From a virus: DNA of 64,000 nucleotides. The stretch is taken from positions 1-64,000 of IMG/VR virus record IMGVR_UViG_3300043778_000063. One strand, 5' to 3'. Both the position numbers and the translations under genes were made by a program. The notes beneath the pieces were generated by a model. The model was not told the DNA's origin. It was given only the letters and a program-made list of their open reading frames with translations, and did not search any database. Shown here one piece after another: positions 619 through 8,833 of the stretch (position 1 is the first letter of the stretch; each line of letters opens with the position of its first letter).

Positions 619-1702
619 ATCCAAACCACTCGCCATCGATCTTTTTGCAGGCCTTGGAGGCTGGTCTCACGGTCTGCTCGCCGAGGGCTGGGATTGCATC
701 GGTTTCGACATCGAACAGCACGTCTACGGCGATCACCGCTATCCCGCGCAGCTCGTGGTGCAAGACGTTCTGACGCTGCATGGCTCGCAATTCCGCAACG
801 CCGACCTGATCGTGGCTAGCCCGCCGTGCCAGGAATATTCGTGGATGGCCATGCCGTGGTCGAGGGCCAAGGCGCATGCGGCGGAGATCCGAGCCGACAC
901 CACGGGCGCCGAGCTGGCGCGGCTCAACCGTCTGTTCAACGCCTGTTTCCGCATCCAGCGCGAGGCGTGCGAAGCGGCCGGCCGCCATATCCCGATGGTG
1001 GTCGAGAACGTCAAGGGTGCGCAGCCGTGGGTTGGCCGTGCGCGCTGGATGTTCGGATCGTTCGCGCTCTGGGGCGACGTGCCGGCGCTGATGCCGATTA
1101 CGGGACGCCGAAGTCATATGAAATGCCCTAACGAAAGTTGGAGCCCATCGCGTCCGAGCTACACTAAAGATCACGCTTGGAAAGATGAGGCGACCAAAAA
1201 CAACGGCGGCTCATGGTTCAACGTCGCGCACAACACGACCAGCGGCAAAGGGCGTAACCCGGATGGGCGGAATCCGAAATGCGATTGCCAGCATCCTGAG
1301 ACAACGCCGGCAGGTTTCGCCGCAGTCAGCGTCAACTGTCCAGTTCATGGGAACGTCGGCCCGACGCTCTGCACCACGTTTCCATCGGCCCGATCGGGCG
1401 GTGCTGATCCAATGTGGCGGCGCGGATTTCAGGCGACGGCCGCAGATCAATTGCAGGCCGAAGGCGTCAAGCAGCGCGGCAGCGGCGCTGCTTGGTTCGA
1501 CGAAGCGCTGAACGAGCGTCGGCGGAATGCCACGGCAGCCGGCATGAAGACGGGAAACCGGTGGTTCGGCGATGGCAATGAACGGTCGCCGATGCGCCAG
1601 CACAACAGCAAATCGAACGCTCGCAAGATGGCCTGTGCCATGATCGCCAAGATCCCCGAACCGCTGAGCCGCCACATCGCCCGGACGTTCAAGCCTCGCT
1701 GA
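611..1702 (+). CDS. DNA cytosine-C5 methyltransferase-like protein
   Basis: Motif I DLFAGLGG, motif IV SPPCQ, motif VI VENV. Confidence 0.85.
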   Translation: MTKSKPLAIDLFAGLGGWSHGLLAEGWDCIGFDIEQHVYGDHRYPAQLVVQDVLTLHGSQFRNADLIVASPPCQEYSWMAMPWSRAKAHAAEIRADTTGAELARLNRLFNACFRIQREACEAAGRHIPMVVENVKGAQPWVGRARWMFGSFALWGDVPALMPITGRRSHMKCPNESWSPSRPSYTKDHAWKDEATKNNGGSWFNVAHNTTSGKGRNPDGRNPKCDCQHPETTPAGFAAVSVNCPVHGNVGPTLCTTFPSARSGGADPMWRRGFQATAADQLQAEGVKQRGSGAAWFDEALNERRRNATAAGMKTGNRWFGDGNERSPMRQHNSKSNARKMACAMIAKIPEPLSRHIARTFKPR

Positions 1703-1705
1703 TCC

Positions 1706-2914
1706 TCACCAATCCAGGAACCGCTTCCCGGCCTCGGGGATCTCAACGCCAGATTCATGAAGGATCTTGTACATTTGCGCTTGCCCGGCCAGGGAAGACG
1801 CAACGTTTTTCACCTCTTCTGGAACGCTATTCCAAGCCACCCCGCCGTCATCCCGAAATGTTGGCTTCCACCCGCTAGATAGAGCCCCTGAGATGATTTT
1901 CTCGCGGTGCCGGTAAACGTCGTCTTTCTGCTTGGCGGCCTCCTGGCGTTGCTTTGCTTCCTCTGCGGCGCGCTCAGCCGACGACATGTTCTTCCAGCGA
2001 TCAAAATCCTTGCGGTATTCGGCATGTTCTTCCCTGACCTCGGCATGCTCCCCATTGATCACCTGATCGATTTCCTCGATCGCCGATTTCAATTCATTGC
2101 GGAGACTTTCAATTCCGTCCCGCAAGGCCTCCTCCGCCTCTTCTATATCGGCCTCAATTTCGTCGGCATCAATTTCAGCAGTCGGAATCTTATCCCCGTC
2201 TTCGTCGAGGCCGCGGATGAGATGATCCAGCGTATCGGACAGCGAATCGACCTCTTCGAACTGACCGGACAGATCCTCAACGACGCGGGCTATCTTGATG
2301 GATTGAATGTGTGACAGGCCGAAATCCTCATGACTGACTTTCTCGATAGTAGCCCCTTCAGGCTTGTCTCCAATTAAAGCCGACAACTTGTTCGTGATTC
2401 CGATCAGATTATTGCGGACGTTAGCCGCCATGCGCGGGGCTTTTTCATACGCATATTCTTGCGCGCTCTGTTCCGCCTCAAACTCCAGCCCCTCTTCCAG
2501 TTCTGCGCGATCCTCTGGCGTGATGTCCCATATCTCGCCGAGCACGCTGTCGAACTCATCGTTCAGGTCGACCAACTTGGAATGCAGCCGCTCGCTCACC
2601 TTTGCCGCCTTGTCGAGCTTCAGTTCCTTCGCTGCCTTCGAGATGGACTGAGCCGCGCCAGATCCGAACTTGCCATCCGGCGCCCGCGGGTGCTCCGATT
2701 CCACGAACTCAGCGTCGCCCGCGAGGAAAGGGAGGACGGCATCGCTAGCCCCGCCTCCCTTGTTTTTCGGATCAAATCCGAGCATGGCAATGACATCTTC
2801 CGGTGTCTCATCAAGCTCAACATCGTCATCAGGTACTTCTGTGATTTGCCGTTTCCTCCAATCAGGAAGCGGAGTTTCAGCGGTTCCGAATCTCGCGTCT
2901 GGTAACATCATCAT
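1706..2914 (-). CDS. Acidic coiled-coil protein with HPRxxxGKF tag; putative internal head protein
   Basis: ATGA overlap with the portal stop; DETPEDVIAMLGFDP and EHPRAPDGKFGSG motifs; very E/D-rich. Confidence 0.75.
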   Translation of the reverse strand: MMMLPDARFGTAETPLPDWRKRQITEVPDDDVELDETPEDVIAMLGFDPKNKGGGASDAVLPFLAGDAEFVESEHPRAPDGKFGSGAAQSISKAAKELKLDKAAKVSERLHSKLVDLNDEFDSVLGEIWDITPEDRAELEEGLEFEAEQSAQEYAYEKAPRMAANVRNNLIGITNKLSALIGDKPEGATIEKVSHEDFGLSHIQSIKIARVVEDLSGQFEEVDSLSDTLDHLIRGLDEDGDKIPTAEIDADEIEADIEEAEEALRDGIESLRNELKSAIEEIDQVINGEHAEVREEHAEYRKDFDRWKNMSSAERAAEEAKQRQEAAKQKDDVYRHREKIISGALSSGWKPTFRDDGGVAWNSVPEEVKNVASSLAGQAQMYKILHESGVEIPEAGKRFLDW

Positions 2915-5616
2915 GCTGCGATCTTCCACGCTGCGAATACGGACGGATTGATATAGCTCTGCAATGCAATCACCGGCGTATTTCCGAGTTTCGAAGATAC
3001 CACTTTTGCCACCTCCATGACGGCCTTTTTATAATCCTTCTCGTTTTTTGGAGCTTCACGATTGGCTACCTCGCTAATCGCCGTGCGCGTGCCAAGCAGA
3101 GTTCGGAAATCTTTCGTTTTGAATCCACCCCCATCGAAGGAATGGACATGGTCCAGCAGCATCTTTTCATTGATAGGAAATAGCTGCCCATTGTCGCCCG
3201 CTGCTGACTTGCGCTCTCGAAGCATTGCCGCCGTTCCTGGATCGGTGACGGGAAGATCAAGCGAGACGCCCTTTTTACCGACAAATTTCAGCGAAACCCT
3301 CTCGCCATCGACAACGACATGCTTACCTTCCAGGGTAGTGGCTCCATACGCTTTCTTCTCTGCTCCAGTATCGTCTTCGCTGCCGGGTCGAATGCCTGTG
3401 GTCATGATCAGGTGGGCGCAATCCGCAGCGGCCCGTTTCTTAGGATCTCCGGATTTGCGAGCTTCTTCATTTTGCGCGTAGATCGAATTGAATTTCTGAT
3501 TAAGCTCATTGATGCGGGAAAACTTTGCTGCTGCTTGCCCGGCAGAAAATTCCGCTGAATAAACTGCCTGCCTACGCCCCTTCACATCCTTGCCTGTCGC
3601 CAGCAATGCCGCCTTCGGATCACTGCTGAACGTCACGTCGGTCCACGCTGGAGGAATCTTGAGCACTTGGATATGCGACGGGAGAGGTGACCCGGTAGAT
3701 GTAACGCGCTTGCCATCCACAATCTTTGTCGGCTGATGTGATGACTTAGAGCCTGATGATCCTCCACTTCCAGATCCGAATTTTCCGTCGTCATCTCTCG
3801 GATGCTTACTTTCGTCGAACGGAGCTTCGTCTTGCGCGCCGCCGCTGGCCTCTTTCTCGAACTCGGTCGCCGCGGAGCCAGCGCCTGGCCCGAGCAGGCC
3901 CTCCTCGGCCGGCGGCTCCGGCAGGTCGTCCGGTTTGAGATTCGTGTAGGGCAACTCTTTGTCGGCGATGATTATCTTGCGGACCTCGTCCGGCCCGACG
4001 GCTCCCATGTCGACATACTTCTGATGCGTGTCGGCGCTGTCCTTGTCCTTCTGTCCTTTCTCTGCCTGCGTGATCGGTCGAAGCTTTTCCCATCGATGCG
4101 TAATTTCCGGATCGATTTCACCCCACAATGACAATTGCTCGAAATTAATAGTTGTTCGAAGATGGCTGTCGAGGACACGCGCTTGATACGCAACAATATT
4201 GTCGTCATAGACCTCGATTTCACCTTCCGATGAGGCGTTCAAACCAGCGGGCTGAATTCCGGTGAATTTTACGAGCGGAAGGCGTCCAGGAAAGGCCATA
4301 TGCTCCTGAGCTTGCGCCTGGAGTTCGTGTAGGCCGGCCAGCGAGGCGGATACGTTCTTGAAATCTTCCGTTTTGTTATTGATTACGAAAGTTCCCATGT
4401 TATCGCGGAACATGTTGAATGCGGCGACTCGCGTCATCAGCGGTGTCACATTTCCCGGCTGCATCAGCGTCGATAGATCGGTCGCCAGCACCATGACCGA
4501 GAACGAGTGGATCAGCGCGTTAACGCTCGATACTGTCGTAATGAAGCGGTCGACGTACGGCTTCGCCATCTGCGTCAGGCTGAGGCCGCCGAACGCATAG
4601 GCTGGCTTCAGCATGTCCGGCACCGGGTGGGGGATGAATGTCAGCAGCCGCGAGCCGTGGAATTCCTGGCCGTTCACGTACCAGACCTGCGGATTGTACC
4701 AGTCCTGGCGCCACGGATATGCGGCGTTGTACATCAGCGGGTAGGCCCACATGGGCTCGATCGTCTTCAGCGCCTTGAACGACCCGATCGGGACTTTGGT
4801 CTTGCTGAGCGCATCGCGGCCATTCCCGATCGGGTTCTTGAGCTCCTCGACGTTGATGTCGTCCGAATCATTGGTCCGGATGTCGTGGAAGAGATGCGAG
4901 CGCCCGAAGAAGCCGCCGTTGCGCGCCTGCTCGTAATAGCGATCGCGGACCGCCAGGCGCAGCTGGTCGTCCTGCAGCGCCTTGACCTTGTCTGTCTTGC
5001 CGGCCGCGCCAACGCGCTTCTTGCGCTCGTCTGGATCGGCCATGCGCTCATCGTAGCCGGCCGGGTCCTTCTCGCGGTCCTCCTGCTGTGTCTTCTCGTC
5101 GCCGACGACGTCGAAGTCGATCCATTTCCTGGTCGCGTCATCAGCGATCGTCTCGGCCATGACGCGGTACTCCGGGCGCAGCGCGAGCTCCGACAGGTAG
5201 GTGTAGCCGAGGAACATGAAGCCCTCGCCGGCGAATCCGCCATCGCCGCCGGCGAGCCACTGATTCGAGGCAAACCCCAGATTGGCCGTCAGGGCGCTGT
5301 CCTGCGCCATCAGCAACTTGGAATCGGATGGAACCGCGGCCTTGGGGAACGCTGGCAGTTGGAACGGGTTGTCGGCCGACGTCCGCTCCTTCTTCGCCGA
5401 GTACTTCCGACTGATCTCCTCGATCTCAGGTAGCATCATCGCCCAGGCACGGGGATCAATCGCGGGGCCGACCTCGCTCTTGGGCTCAGCCGGCGCGAGG
5501 GGCGCGCGCGGCGCCAACTTCGTCTCCGCGACCTGGCGAGGCTTGTTGGGGTTCGGCTTGCGCCCCTGGCCGCGGCCGCCGCCGCCCCAGTTCGGGTTCC
5601 GCGGATTGGGCGCCAT
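2911..5616 (-). CDS. Portal protein (DUF1073/Acb1-portal-like) fused to C-terminal DNA topoisomerase IB domain
   Basis: N-terminal portal motifs (FLGYTYLSELA, HGSRLL, AYAFGGLSL, FTGIQPAGLNASSEGE); C-terminal Topo IB motifs IPPAW, GRRQAVY, GIRPG, YGATTL, FVGKKG, KDFRT, LGNTP..SYINP. Confidence 0.88.
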   Translation of the reverse strand: MAPNPRNPNWGGGGRGQGRKPNPNKPRQVAETKLAPRAPLAPAEPKSEVGPAIDPRAWAMMLPEIEEISRKYSAKKERTSADNPFQLPAFPKAAVPSDSKLLMAQDSALTANLGFASNQWLAGGDGGFAGEGFMFLGYTYLSELALRPEYRVMAETIADDATRKWIDFDVVGDEKTQQEDREKDPAGYDERMADPDERKKRVGAAGKTDKVKALQDDQLRLAVRDRYYEQARNGGFFGRSHLFHDIRTNDSDDINVEELKNPIGNGRDALSKTKVPIGSFKALKTIEPMWAYPLMYNAAYPWRQDWYNPQVWYVNGQEFHGSRLLTFIPHPVPDMLKPAYAFGGLSLTQMAKPYVDRFITTVSSVNALIHSFSVMVLATDLSTLMQPGNVTPLMTRVAAFNMFRDNMGTFVINNKTEDFKNVSASLAGLHELQAQAQEHMAFPGRLPLVKFTGIQPAGLNASSEGEIEVYDDNIVAYQARVLDSHLRTTINFEQLSLWGEIDPEITHRWEKLRPITQAEKGQKDKDSADTHQKYVDMGAVGPDEVRKIIIADKELPYTNLKPDDLPEPPAEEGLLGPGAGSAATEFEKEASGGAQDEAPFDESKHPRDDDGKFGSGSGGSSGSKSSHQPTKIVDGKRVTSTGSPLPSHIQVLKIPPAWTDVTFSSDPKAALLATGKDVKGRRQAVYSAEFSAGQAAAKFSRINELNQKFNSIYAQNEEARKSGDPKKRAAADCAHLIMTTGIRPGSEDDTGAEKKAYGATTLEGKHVVVDGERVSLKFVGKKGVSLDLPVTDPGTAAMLRERKSAAGDNGQLFPINEKMLLDHVHSFDGGGFKTKDFRTLLGTRTAISEVANREAPKNEKDYKKAVMEVAKVVSSKLGNTPVIALQSYINPSVFAAWKIAA

Positions 5617-5922
5617 TCAATTTGATCCTTGCTTTTTGAGCTCGCCGAGGCTCTCGAACACAGTGCAAGGCACGCCATAGCCGTACCATTGACCATTGCT
5701 GCCGAGCGGGTCGTTCTTGATCGGATCATCGAGCACGATCGCCACCGCGTTTTCGTCTTCATCCAGCGTGATCTGATTGATCAGGTTACCGTCAGGATCA
5801 CGGGACCGGAAGATGTCGCCCTTGCGGAGGTCCTGATATCGGCAGGGAGACCACCCTTCGCCGACCAGCCGCTCTGCGGTGATCACCTCGTCGGGCGGCG
5901 TGGGATGCCACTTCGCGGTCAT
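5617..5922 (-). CDS. Hypothetical protein
   Basis: Abuts portal start; ATGA overlap upstream. Confidence 0.65.
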   Translation of the reverse strand: MTAKWHPTPPDEVITAERLVGEGWSPCRYQDLRKGDIFRSRDPDGNLINQITLDEDENAVAIVLDDPIKNDPLGSNGQWYGYGVPCTVFESLGELKKQGSN

Positions 5923-6161
5923 GCGCTGGTCGGCGGCAGGTCCAGATCCGCCATGCTGTCGCAGGCCGTGGACCAGATCTGATGGATGATGGTTCCGTCT
6001 TTGTGGAAAACTGCCCCTTCGCTAAGCCGCTTGGCCTTCCTGCGGGCGCGGCGGGCCTCCGCAGCAGCCTTGCGGTCCTCCGCGCCGGCGCGCTTCTGGA
6101 TGGTCCGGACGGCATGCCGGTTGAACCCGTTCCCATGCGCGTCGATGTTGATAAAGGTCAT
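5919..6161 (-). CDS. Hypothetical basic protein
   Basis: RBS GAGG; overlap with the downstream gene. Confidence 0.6.
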   Translation of the reverse strand: MTFINIDAHGNGFNRHAVRTIQKRAGAEDRKAAAEARRARRKAKRLSEGAVFHKDGTIIHQIWSTACDSMADLDLPPTSA

Positions 6162-6221
6162 GACCCGTCCTCACTTGATTTGGTTTCAAGTTTGAAAATG
6201 CAATCAACCATGGCACGGCAC

Positions 6222-6258
6222 CAAAAGCAACGGCCCCAGGTGTGAGCCCGGGGCCGTT
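6222..6258 (-). terminator. Rho-independent terminator
   Basis: AACGGCCCC...GGGGCCGTT stem followed by GCTTTT on the - strand. Confidence 0.6.
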
Positions 6259-6513
6259 CTGCCGATCCGCGTCGGCTCGCCTACTCACAACCCTGTTCCG
6301 GTGGTAGATCGTCTTACGAGGCCGTTTGACCTCAGCCGTTCCAGATTTTGCCTTTGGTTGCTTTCGCTACGGGATTCTTACGTTGGCGTCACGGTTCTCT
6401 CCACCGCTGGGCCGCACCCGAAGGCCGCCAGTCCTTCCCTAAGCCACACCACTATGCAGGTGTCGCACCGTCTTTTGCCTTCCGCGCGTAAGCTCCTAGA
6501 CGGAGGAAACGTG

Positions 6514-6815: not shown

Positions 6816-8507
6816 TCAATACCTCCGTTGTGGCGCGCCTGCCTGCGCGATCTGCCTCAGCATGTCCATCGTGATTTCAACCGGTGGCTGCTCCATCGGT
6901 GCGTAATGGATCACGACCGCATCAGCCTGATTCGGGCTCTTGCGGCCGTTCGGCTTCTTCTCGATGATGAGCTTGCCGACCTCGTTTTGCTTGTAGGTGG
7001 CCTGGCTCAGTTCCGCGACGAGCTTCATCAGATTCGGATTCTCGGAATTCAGCGAGATGATGTCGTCCGGCGGGCAGGCAACCCCAGTCTCGACCCAGCG
7101 GTAAGTCCGCTGGAACCGCTTCCGTAGCGACCACCACGATTGCGCCTTGTGGTTCCCGAAATAGTCCTGATTCGTGCGACCGGCGTCGCCCTCCGACCCG
7201 ATGGTGCCCTCTACGATCCCCTCCGGATCATAGACCCCTTCCGAGCCGCGATAGCCGATCGCCCGAATCACCCGGGCCTTGTTCTTGACGCGCCGCTCGT
7301 TGATCACCCGGGCATCGCCCCGGACATCTGCGCCCATGCCGTCGGCATCGTACCGGAACTCGGTGTAGCCGTTCTCATCGCAGACATCGAAGACATATTC
7401 CGTCGACGAGAAGATGTCGCCGCCCTTGCCACTCCACTCATCGGTCTCGACGACCTCGGTCCCCTCGCATCGCGCGATCGCGTTCTTGTCGTCCCCCTCG
7501 TCGGCGACGTCGAACGCAACGCCCTTCTTGCCCGACGGCGCGATGCCGAGCTTTTTCTTGGCATCGATCGCCGCGCGCACCCATAGGCCTGGGATGACCA
7601 CACCATGGATCGAGGCCGAATAATCCCGGTCGATCTCCTGGGCGACAATGACCGGATCCAGGTCCTCGCACTGGCGCTCATACCAGGCTTCGTCCTTTCT
7701 CGGGTCCTCCCTCCAGTCGAAGATGAAGACGTCGATCTTGCCGCCCCACCGCTTTTGCGCGAACAGATTGTTCATCCCGCGGACCGAACTCATACCAATC
7801 TGGCAATTGGTCGTCTGCGATAGCGCGGCTGCTACGAGCTCCTGGCGCGGGTGGTGAGCTTCCTCATCGAAGAAATACAGCGTAGTCCGATCGCCGCGGC
7901 CGATGTCGTCACCGCCTTCGCCAGCGATGATGGAGCCGGTCTCGGGGAACGTGATGCGCATGTACGGCGCATCACGCCAGGGGATGAACCCCCCGCGGAA
8001 CTCCTCTGGCAGATGCTCCATGAACATCCTGCCCTTGGGCAATAGCGGTTTGTAGGTACCGATCTTGTCCACGTATTCAGTCTTACGCGACCCGAATCCG
8101 ATCGCCACGCCATCGTTGAACAGACACAGCGTGCAGGATAGCGAGAGCGCCAGCCACGACACACCCATGTCGCGCGATTTCTCACACAGGCCAGGCCGGC
8201 GGTTCTTCCACCGATCGATTACCCAGTCGATCCACTCGCGTTGCCGCGGGAACAAGATGAACGGGATCAGCGTCGGCAGACCGATGTCGGCGTTGCGGGG
8301 GTCGTGCGTCACCCCCCAGTCGTTGATGAAGTCGGCCGGGTGCGCCGCGTAATAGGTCTTGAGCTCTGGTAATCGCTCTGGATGCTCGCGGAGCTTCTCG
8401 AGGTTCTCAAGCCGCGCCCGGAAGATCGCCGCATATTCCGGCTGCTTCCAGTTCATCGCCAGAACCGGGAGGCTCTCGGTCTGGTACTCGATCTTGGGGA
8501 TGTTCAC
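6816..8507 (-). CDS. terL: Terminase large subunit
   Basis: Walker A-like EKSRDMGVSW, Walker B YFFDE, nuclease FDVADEGDD and SPNQADA; GTG start overlaps the HNH stop. Confidence 0.92.
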   Translation of the reverse strand: MNIPKIEYQTESLPVLAMNWKQPEYAAIFRARLENLEKLREHPERLPELKTYYAAHPADFINDWGVTHDPRNADIGLPTLIPFILFPRQREWIDWVIDRWKNRRPGLCEKSRDMGVSWLALSLSCTLCLFNDGVAIGFGSRKTEYVDKIGTYKPLLPKGRMFMEHLPEEFRGGFIPWRDAPYMRITFPETGSIIAGEGGDDIGRGDRTTLYFFDEEAHHPRQELVAAALSQTTNCQIGMSSVRGMNNLFAQKRWGGKIDVFIFDWREDPRKDEAWYERQCEDLDPVIVAQEIDRDYSASIHGVVIPGLWVRAAIDAKKKLGIAPSGKKGVAFDVADEGDDKNAIARCEGTEVVETDEWSGKGGDIFSSTEYVFDVCDENGYTEFRYDADGMGADVRGDARVINERRVKNKARVIRAIGYRGSEGVYDPEGIVEGTIGSEGDAGRTNQDYFGNHKAQSWWSLRKRFQRTYRWVETGVACPPDDIISLNSENPNLMKLVAELSQATYKQNEVGKLIIEKKPNGRKSPNQADAVVIHYAPMEQPPVEITMDMLRQIAQAGAPQRRY

Positions 8508-8833
8508 TTGGATTCCTCGGCAGCGAAAGACTTTGGGCAGCCGGCATTTTCGCGATGATGGTGCGGCCTCCAATTCGTAGGCACTCGGCGCCGGCCTGGT
8601 CTCCACCAATAATCATGCTCAAATCGGTAGACCGCCCATTGCTCTTCGGTCATGTCCCGCTTGACGTGGTTGCACGTGGCGCATGCCCAGACGAGGATGC
8701 GGCCGCCCTTGGATCTCGGCTCGACGTGATCCCTGGTTGGATAGAGCAGCGGCACATCGGTGCTCATCGGCCGCGCGCAATAGGTGCAGAGCTTGCCGTT
8801 CTGCCGGCGGGACCTGACAAACGGCTTCGTCAT
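8504..8833 (-). CDS. HNH endonuclease
   Basis: CTYC...TRDHVEPRSKGG...ACATCNHVK. Confidence 0.85.
   Translation of the reverse strand: MTKPFVRSRRQNGKLCTYCARPMSTDVPLLYPTRDHVEPRSKGGRILVWACATCNHVKRDMTEEQWAVYRFEHDYWWRPGRRRVPTNWRPHHHRENAGCPKSFAAEESK

Follow-up and report, generated by a model that had tools for sequence, protein, structure and literature searches.

What is a complete type IB topoisomerase (TopIB) doing at the end of a phage portal protein? The question is raised by an uncultured soil phage known from the 72,706-base IMG/VR record IMGVR_UViG_3300043778_000063 (94% complete according to CheckV), of which the first 64 kb make up the stretch of DNA analysed here (the window). At 2911..5616, on the minus strand, a single open reading frame (ORF) encodes a 901-residue fusion of a portal with a TopIB (P0001), assigned by profile and structure-database matches. 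An earlier note on this DNA had recognised the fusion, which is real and in frame, but had overlooked the strand: read on the plus strand 2911-5616 is full of stops, while the minus strand holds one open frame of 901 amino acids. The evidence assembled below suggests that the TopIB is probably an accessory capsid cargo, of the portal- or MuF-fused effector kind, that stays silent until infection.

The ATG of the fusion at 5616 directly abuts the stop codon of a small upstream ORF (5617-5922), and an alternative start codon was rejected because of this adjacency. The order of portal, linker and topoisomerase was given correctly in the earlier note, with domain sizes slightly off. The portal fold extends to about residue 551, a linker covers residues 552-627 (3736..3963, minus strand, as are all parts of the fusion) and the TopIB takes up residues 628-901, about 274 amino acids (2914..3735). 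Missing from that first anatomy were a leader tag, an acidic partner and the identity of the downstream gene as the displaced portal tail, all described below. Profile searches recover both halves, as had been anticipated. The portal core matches PF06381 (Phage_portal_3) over residues 148-532 (4021..5175; E 7e-57, 193 bits against a Pfam cut-off of 33.8), the fusion matches the portal family phrog_146 in PHROGs (E 9e-73), and residues 275-598 match the Pa193/E217 portal gp19 by sequence in the PDB (9b41, 8fvh; E 1e-28). In the model, the C-terminal portal helices (residues 517-551, helices 517-537 and 542-551; 3964..4068) are the counterpart of the barrel in which the resolved portion of Pa193 gp19 terminates, and the gp19 alignment in this region reaches about residue 533. 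The linker is predicted to be disordered, with a predicted local distance difference test (pLDDT) score below 50 for residues 568-601 and 615-624 of the full-length model. An N-terminal leader (residues 1-54; 5455..5616), basic and rich in Pro and Gly, is likewise predicted to be disordered (pLDDT <50 for most of residues 1-51). This disordered portal leader (~54 residues) has a parallel in Pa193 gp19, in whose structure description the first 93 residues lack density (PMC11456595).

On the topoisomerase side, PF21338 (Top1B_N_bact) matches residues 648-677 with 33 bits (cut-off 27) and PF01028 (Topoisom_I) matches residues 693-873 with 65.8 bits (cut-off 23.7; 69.5 bits in the genome search), while residues 647-895 match the Deinococcus radiodurans TopIB 2f4q by sequence (E 2e-26). 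The five catalytic residues that had been read from the translation are intact. R743 (GIRPG; codon 3388-3390), K781 (FVGKKG; 3274-3276), R838 (KDFRT; 3103-3105), N879 (LGNTP; 2980-2982) and Y888 (SYINP; 2953-2955) align to positions 137, 174, 239, 280 and 289 of 2f4q, which we take to be its catalytic pentad. This pentad never varies among 62 diverged phage TopIB sequences (alignment A2), and neither do 27 further columns. An AlphaFold model of residues 637-901 has a mean pLDDT of 92.9 and includes a small N-terminal beta-sheet domain (strands 23-27, 35-40 and 46-50). Because Foldseek places this model beside 3m4a and 2f4q (E about 1e-15) and the variola TopIB on DNA, 3igc (TMq 0.80, root-mean-square deviation 3.7 Å, 274 columns), both domains of the small bacterial and poxvirus type of TopIB are present as modelled. 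The TopIB is apparently complete and catalytically competent, judging from its residues.

The join between portal and TopIB is found in more than one assembly. A Logan contig of 72,507 bases, built by a second assembler from the probable source run, has 0 differences over 1500-6500, although it is not independent support because it was built from the same reads. P0002, a protein of 902 amino acids from an independent sample, is collinear with the fusion through portal, linker, tag and TopIB. An assembly chimera at the join was rejected on present evidence, given the contig agreement and the collinear P0002. A search for further portal-TopIB fusions found them in quantity: by hand count of the precomputed Pfam column, PF06381-PF01028 fusions make up 68 of the 120 listed TopIB relatives.

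The fusion gene is the working portal of the phage. One PF06381 match was found by profile search in the whole 72.7-kb genome, PF06381 being the only portal family searched. As the fusion is the sole such match in a complete genome, up to 12 TopIB copies per virion would be expected, provided that the fusion is not cut before assembly; the earlier note's estimate of up to twelve domains per particle holds on the same proviso. In the description of Pa193 gp19, residues 94-528 are modelled and end in the barrel, while 529-765 are without density (PMC11456595). Fusion residues 275-598 align to gp19 205-533, and the linker and TopIB begin where the visible barrel ends. The side of a portal that lies beyond the barrel faces the capsid interior. 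By homology, the C-terminus of the fusion should face the capsid interior as well.

The borders of the acquired DNA can be read from sister genomes. Two IMG/VR loci (L007 and L005), whose flanking head genes are 90-99% identical to those here at the nucleotide level, lack a 1077-nucleotide (nt) cassette at 2764..3840 (minus strand) that comprises tag, TopIB, stop/restart and acidic partner; in both, 19 nt bridge positions 3841 and 2763. The same 3841-2763 join is present in a contig (X2) that comes from another soil study; the X2 run held only 6% of the sampled words, and the contig was used for the join only and not for habitat. In L007 and L005 the portal frame continues '...EFEKEASG...GGGASDAVLPF...HPRAPDGKFGSG...' into an acidic helical tail that ends '...GVEIPEAGKRFLDW'. 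This in-frame portal tail corresponds to residues 56-407 of the acidic protein encoded downstream of the fusion here (P0121, 407 amino acids; 1706-2929, minus strand), which consists of partner, a second tag and tail; the start (GGGASDAVLPF...) and the end (...GVEIPEAGKRFLDW) are identical. The net length difference of 1058 nt (2 mod 3) is the exact frame offset between the portal-TopIB gene and the downstream gene. Because the L007 and L005 portal reads in frame into a tail that is separate here, the comparison indicates that 1077 nt were inserted into an ancestral portal-tail fusion, yielding two genes, portal-tag-TopIB and partner-tag-tail. The acidic helical tail proper (1706..2656, minus strand) is the C-terminal end of the portal in L007 and L005. 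For the 407-residue downstream protein no family was found in Pfam or PHROGs, and the ESM Atlas gave no usable feature match, with structural rows at TM <=0.33.

The cassette is, judged from its composition and distribution, foreign and recently acquired. GC content is 0.527 in the TopIB part and 0.616 in portal residues 1-600, and at third codon positions (GC3) the TopIB part stands at 0.548 against 0.793 for portal residues 1-600 and 0.801 for the large terminase. The higher AT content that the earlier note had seen by eye is therefore borne out, and so is its suggestion of later acquisition, because of the GC3 gap together with the absence of the domain from the nearest relatives. The nearest copy of the cassette is that of P0002, whose TopIB is 91% identical while its portal is 63% identical. 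The next TopIBs are that of P0003 (75%, portal-fused) and then that of P0004 (70%), which sits on an ADP-ribosyltransferase protein. Among the 120 closest portals listed, PF01028 occurs only in the query and P0002. The three nearest portals, all without TopIB, are P0224 (93%, 605 amino acids, portal only), P0225 (95%, 1291 amino acids, with an intein) and P0226 (89%, 982 amino acids).

Two further observations concern the borders and the tail. Both cassette junctions (3835-3845 and 2758-2768) lie within Gly-coding GGC/GGN runs, and each module has a tag ahead of it and a Gly-rich stretch behind; recombination between modules may take place in such repeats of linker coding sequence. In its middle part (1817-2653, GC3 0.63) the tail is only ~33% identical to the L007 and L005 tails, although both ends are nearly identical, and the tail core seems also to have been exchanged.

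The TopIB module is not bound to this portal. Searched by itself, the TopIB domain has matches in 5416 cluster representatives at E <=0.001 and in 1209 at E <=1e-30. No more than 30 residues separate the TopIB from the C-terminus in 121 of the best 150 representatives; at least 31 of the 150 are fused to a portal of the same type, 22 look solo (<=100 extra residues on each side) and 97 have other extensions. The portal fusions were sought by phmmer with the query's own portal part, so that 31 of 150, and the corresponding 59 of the 120 listed relatives, are lower bounds. Other carriers among these 120 are PF03496 (ADP-ribosyltransferase), PF00293 (NUDIX), PF09979 (DUF2213), PF06074 (Mu-type portal), PF05136 (lambda-type portal), PF04233 (MuF) and PF06414 (zeta-kinase). 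Conversely, the same site in the listed close portals holds an ADP-ribosyltransferase (19), a zeta-kinase (9), a NUDIX domain, a phosphatase or nothing; the tallies of ADP-ribosyltransferases, zeta-kinases and inteins are hand counts of the precomputed Pfam column. These architectures indicate that the module is mobile and that its carriers are swapped.

What the different cargo modules have in common is a short leader tag. In the fusion it reads F-D-E-S-K-HPR-DDD-GKF-GSG (residues 600-616; 3769..3819, minus strand), as found by regular expression and alignment. A second copy, F-V-E-S-E-HPR-APD-GKF-GSG, was found by the same expression in P0121 (residues 75-91; 2657..2707, minus strand), ahead of the tail. 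Among the real genes of the genome the expression matches these two sites only. When 66 cluster representatives with many and varied N-terminal partners are aligned, the consensus FxExxHPRxxxGxF stands ahead of the TopIB. Of the 120 close portals, 63 are extended (>680 amino acids) and 57 are of portal size; 44 of the former and 3 of the latter have the tag, compared with 8 of 1260 shuffled sequences, and in these portals it is often present once per extra module. The portal of locus L008, for example, has the architecture portal-tag-ADP-ribosyltransferase. By these counts the tag heads each cargo module, and it may serve for docking or as a protease site.

The cassette also carries a likely inhibitor. 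The first ~50 residues of the downstream gene (2765..2914, minus strand) form an acidic partner module, whose ATG (2914-2912) overlaps the TGA of the fusion (ATGA, 2914-2911). A programmed frameshift that would fuse TopIB and partner was set aside and is not proposed here, although no search for such a signal was made. Its consensus in alignment A3 is LPDVHFG..DWR..D-rich..TP.DV.AMLGFDP. The module was found in 21 of the 340 collected proteins, starting 11-31 residues past the TopIB in 20 of the 21. In IMG/VR, 80 of 204 confirmed loci were examined, of which 78 leave enough space after the TopIB to accommodate the partner. In 70 of these 78 it occurs no more than 300 nt downstream, encoded at 64 loci by an ORF or frame of its own and at 6 by an in-frame fusion; a further 5 loci have it some 0.85-1 kb downstream. 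Alignments A2 and A3 hold 61 and 60 non-redundant loci of the 80, duplicates and loci without an adjacent partner match having been left out and one locus with a stop codon (L039) having been dropped from A3. Among GTDB species-representative genomes the partner follows the TopIB at 9 of 9 phage-type loci compared with 0 of 12 of the cellular type. The partner hidden Markov model (HMM) was trained on segments adjoining TopIB and tested on other sequences, namely the IMG/VR and GTDB loci. In the GTDB loci (L090-L110), phage-type TopIB ORFs stop within 5 residues of the last matched position, while the 12 of the cellular type run 36-47 residues further and are without the partner.

The prediction of a complex points to what the partner may do. 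TopIB and partner together scored 0.85 (runs 0.88, 0.85 and 0.81) compared with 0.06 for the best of 3 controls. Of 80 solved complexes 58 come up to the score mark used, as do 2 of 110 mismatched pairs, counts that hold only roughly here as the alignments were self-built. At least 79% of contacts recur between runs, and the pLDDT of the partner is 78 or higher. The predicted interface (chain residues 107-109, 144-146, 202 and 241-247) includes R743, K781, R838 and N879 and much of the DNA-facing surface. The model thus supports a partner that plugs the DNA cleft over four of the five catalytic residues.

If the TopIB is capsid cargo, the life of the particle might run as follows. Inside the head there would be one TopIB per portal subunit, 12 in all, attached through a flexible tether of ~75 residues. 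The partner, predicted to lie over the cleft, would prevent the enzyme from acting on DNA, both in the cell that makes the phage and in the filled head; as it runs on into tag 2 and the tail, its binding would also re-attach the displaced tail to the portal non-covalently. The plug would be lost at infection, and the TopIB, proteolytically released or still tethered, would be free to nick and reseal DNA, upon ejection or later. After entry it could relax the incoming genome for early transcription, relax host DNA, or act while tethered.

Several points weigh against this proposal. A domain fused to a portal leaves the head only if it is cut, and cleavage at the tag is putative. Y888, the fifth catalytic residue, lies outside the named predicted interface, and the complex score is a model confidence derived from self-built alignments. 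The HMM behind the partner counts was built from TopIB-adjacent segments, the portal is the sole one by a search for PF06381, and the join has contig-level support, the full-length contig being probably from the source sample. In addition, tblastn against 50,697 GenBank phage records found no close copy of the TopIB, with 3 weak records at 23-28.5% identity. The whole protein found 597 records in the same set, and all 40 listed rows matched through the portal part. The best match to the TopIB from a cultured phage is in Bacteroides phage BS162P1 (OP172706.1, 1926-2531), annotated as 'top1E DNA topoisomerase' and situated near the genome start (28.5% identity, E 3e-15). The GTDB scan gave 21 loci, of which the 9 close ones are all in metagenome-assembled bins with no cultured lysogen among them; the scan used two narrow peptide patterns only and is not evidence of absence. 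The bin contig of one locus, L092 (Castellaniella, 231 kb), may represent a prophage in a genus that can be cultivated.

The first idea of the earlier note had been relief of torsion during packaging or ejection. In a version that takes in the partner, twelve tethered TopIBs would act as an in-situ swivel that releases twist at the portal as DNA is packed or ejected, and the partner would be a gate that the DNA displaces. Such a role makes a release step unnecessary and fits the position of the portal C-terminus, which adjoins the DNA packed last and ejected first; portal fusion is, moreover, the commonest single architecture both among the listed relatives and among the best representatives. 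However, phages nearly identical in their flanking head genes package without any TopIB, the same module rides on unrelated, non-portal carriers and occurs as short tagged proteins, sister portals bear host-directed enzyme types at the same site, and the tightly linked partner, a likely inhibitor predicted over the cleft, suggests an enzyme kept off DNA in the head. Because of these four points, a cargo that is released or used at infection, which the earlier note had also raised, is favoured over torsion relief at the portal, and the latter appears unlikely. We give equally little credence to an elaboration in which twelve plugged clamps at the portal's inner opening, unplugged by the genome as it enters or leaves, would form a torsional relief valve for the pressurised DNA, and to the further possibility that the phage clade, rather than cellular bacteria, was the source of the poxvirus- and mimivirus-type TopIB.

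A weapon and its antidote would produce a similar gene order. In polymorphic toxin-immunity pairs, such as those carried by MuF and like proteins, a variable C-terminal enzyme is directly followed by a small neutralising gene. Here the enzyme is at the extreme C-terminus in most of the best representatives, a small acidic gene comes next and is translationally coupled, module and carrier are freely swapped, and zeta-kinase and ADP-ribosyltransferase domains fill the same slot. The TopIB might thus damage the DNA of a host or competitor or provoke its recombination, with the partner as the immunity protein. All the residues needed for resealing are invariant, however, and nothing marks the enzyme as a poison rather than a working topoisomerase. 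This alternative, which overlaps with the capsid-cargo proposal and differs from it only in target and benefit, has in our estimate a low probability, about that of torsion relief.

A role in capping or joining genome ends is much harder to sustain. Type IB enzymes are able to transfer strands and become linked to DNA in 3'-phosphotyrosyl adducts; covalent attachment near the leading end of the genome, or joining of its ends, might protect the entering DNA against exonucleases or circularise it. The position of the TopIB beside the leading DNA end is the only direct support for this role, together with a distant likeness of the fold to protelomerases (Foldseek ranks 23-29, TMq about 0.3). However, the closest folds are plain topoisomerases and not resolvases, end-specific sequence or hairpin evidence is lacking, and the 139-base overlap between the ends of the record is an assembly feature; we consider the role very improbable. 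The overlap itself consists of the first 139 bases (genome 1-139), which recur at 72568-72706, so that the assembly closes on itself though the record is classed 'linear'. Equally improbable is a functionless passenger, a selfish cassette tolerated in a permissive linker, which the recent acquisition and the close relatives without the cassette would allow but which is at odds with a catalytic pentad and 27 further columns kept invariant in diverged copies, with the size of the clade (1209 cluster representatives) and with the joint conservation of tag, enzyme and partner.

The fusion is part of a minus-strand head module that extends over both ends of the contig. Upstream of the portal is a probable large terminase (6816..8609, minus strand), with weak matches to phrog_5989 (E 4e-6) and PF17288 (E 4e-4, below the cut-off). 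Across the contig ends follow, on the minus strand, a MuF-like head morphogenesis protein (genome 68525-69652), a NUDIX-head protease fusion (genome 65684-66955, L003:5684-6955), and a minor and then a major head protein (genome 62134-63246). The protease fusion matches phrog_2229 over residues 224-408 and the NUDIX hydrolase family phrog_1198 over residues 20-157; this head maturation protease with its N-terminal NUDIX domain, just outside the window, is a second head protein of the phage that bears enzyme cargo. The module is interrupted by a plus-strand C5 cytosine methyltransferase block (227-1702; PF00145, E 3e-8), which is shorter in L007 and marks another variable spot. Within the portal core, 108 nt at 4188-4297 are replaced by ~950-1040 nt in L007/P0225 (L007:8209-9161) and in the X2 contig. 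The insert is probably an intein, as P0225 carries PF13403 (Hint) and other close portals carry PF14890 inteins. No tRNA was found in the 64-kb window.

If the capsid-cargo proposal is correct, the heads of a large group of uncultured phages are loaded with a DNA-relaxing enzyme in silenced form, the inner end of the portal is a site at which cargo in general can be plugged in, with a short conserved tag as its mark, and an acidic peptide of ~50 residues is a natural inhibitor of type IB topoisomerases. The sister genomes, which differ by exactly the cassette, provide a clean natural experiment in which the borders are fixed and matched genomes can be compared. They also illustrate the splitting of a portal-tail fusion by an insertion, after which the two pieces may still be held together by the partner.

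In its general design the system resembles the polyvalent proteins described by Iyer, Burroughs, Anand, de Souza and Aravind in 2017, in which a head-protein carrier (portal or MuF) bears an enzymatic domain that varies between related phages in a context of virion genes (PMC5512222). In that account InPase, 2H and PBECR domains are fused to portals, and portal- and MuF-fused effectors are proposed to be packaged and injected (PMC5512222). Two of the families concerned, PF18823 (InPase) and PF18763, co-occur with this TopIB among the listed relatives. The kind of protein is thus known, while a TopIB cargo, the tag and the acidic partner are absent from the main text of that paper, where 'topoisomerase' appears in one reference title only; its supplementary architecture lists might include TopIB (PMC5512222). 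The present analysis also goes beyond it in that sister genomes define where the cassette begins and ends. No paper on a phage portal-TopIB fusion or a TopIB in phage virions came up in literature searches, and within their reach no phage is known whose particle contains a topoisomerase, in agreement with the earlier note, which knew of no characterised fusion of this sort; the available text of PMC8097291 and PMC3417536 has no bearing on phages.

The enzyme itself is like the TopIBs of D. radiodurans (2f4q, 3m4a) and variola (2h7f, 3igc) in its two-domain fold (Foldseek E 1.5e-15; TMq up to 0.80) and its Arg-Lys-Arg-Asn-Tyr set. Unlike the solved TopIBs, to which it is only 22-28% identical, and the cellular bacterial copies (25-31%), it is fused behind a portal and has a partner alongside. 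The phage TopIB ends no more than about 5 residues from its last helix, whereas cellular copies run 36-47 residues further. Poxviruses pack a TopIB in the virion, where it aids the first round of gene expression, and this would be a functional parallel if the phage enzyme is indeed cargo. The closest solved portal, gp19 of Pa193/E217, also has a long C-terminal extension past the barrel, the density-free 529-765 (PMC11456595). Unlike the extension of gp19 as described, that of the fusion is a defined enzyme on a tether predicted to be disordered. Phage T4 marks proteins that are loaded into its head (internal proteins, Alt) with a short conserved peptide, the capsid-targeting sequence. The tag found here differs from it in being internal and ahead of each cargo module rather than N-terminal on a free protein, and its cargo in this phage is a resealing topoisomerase.

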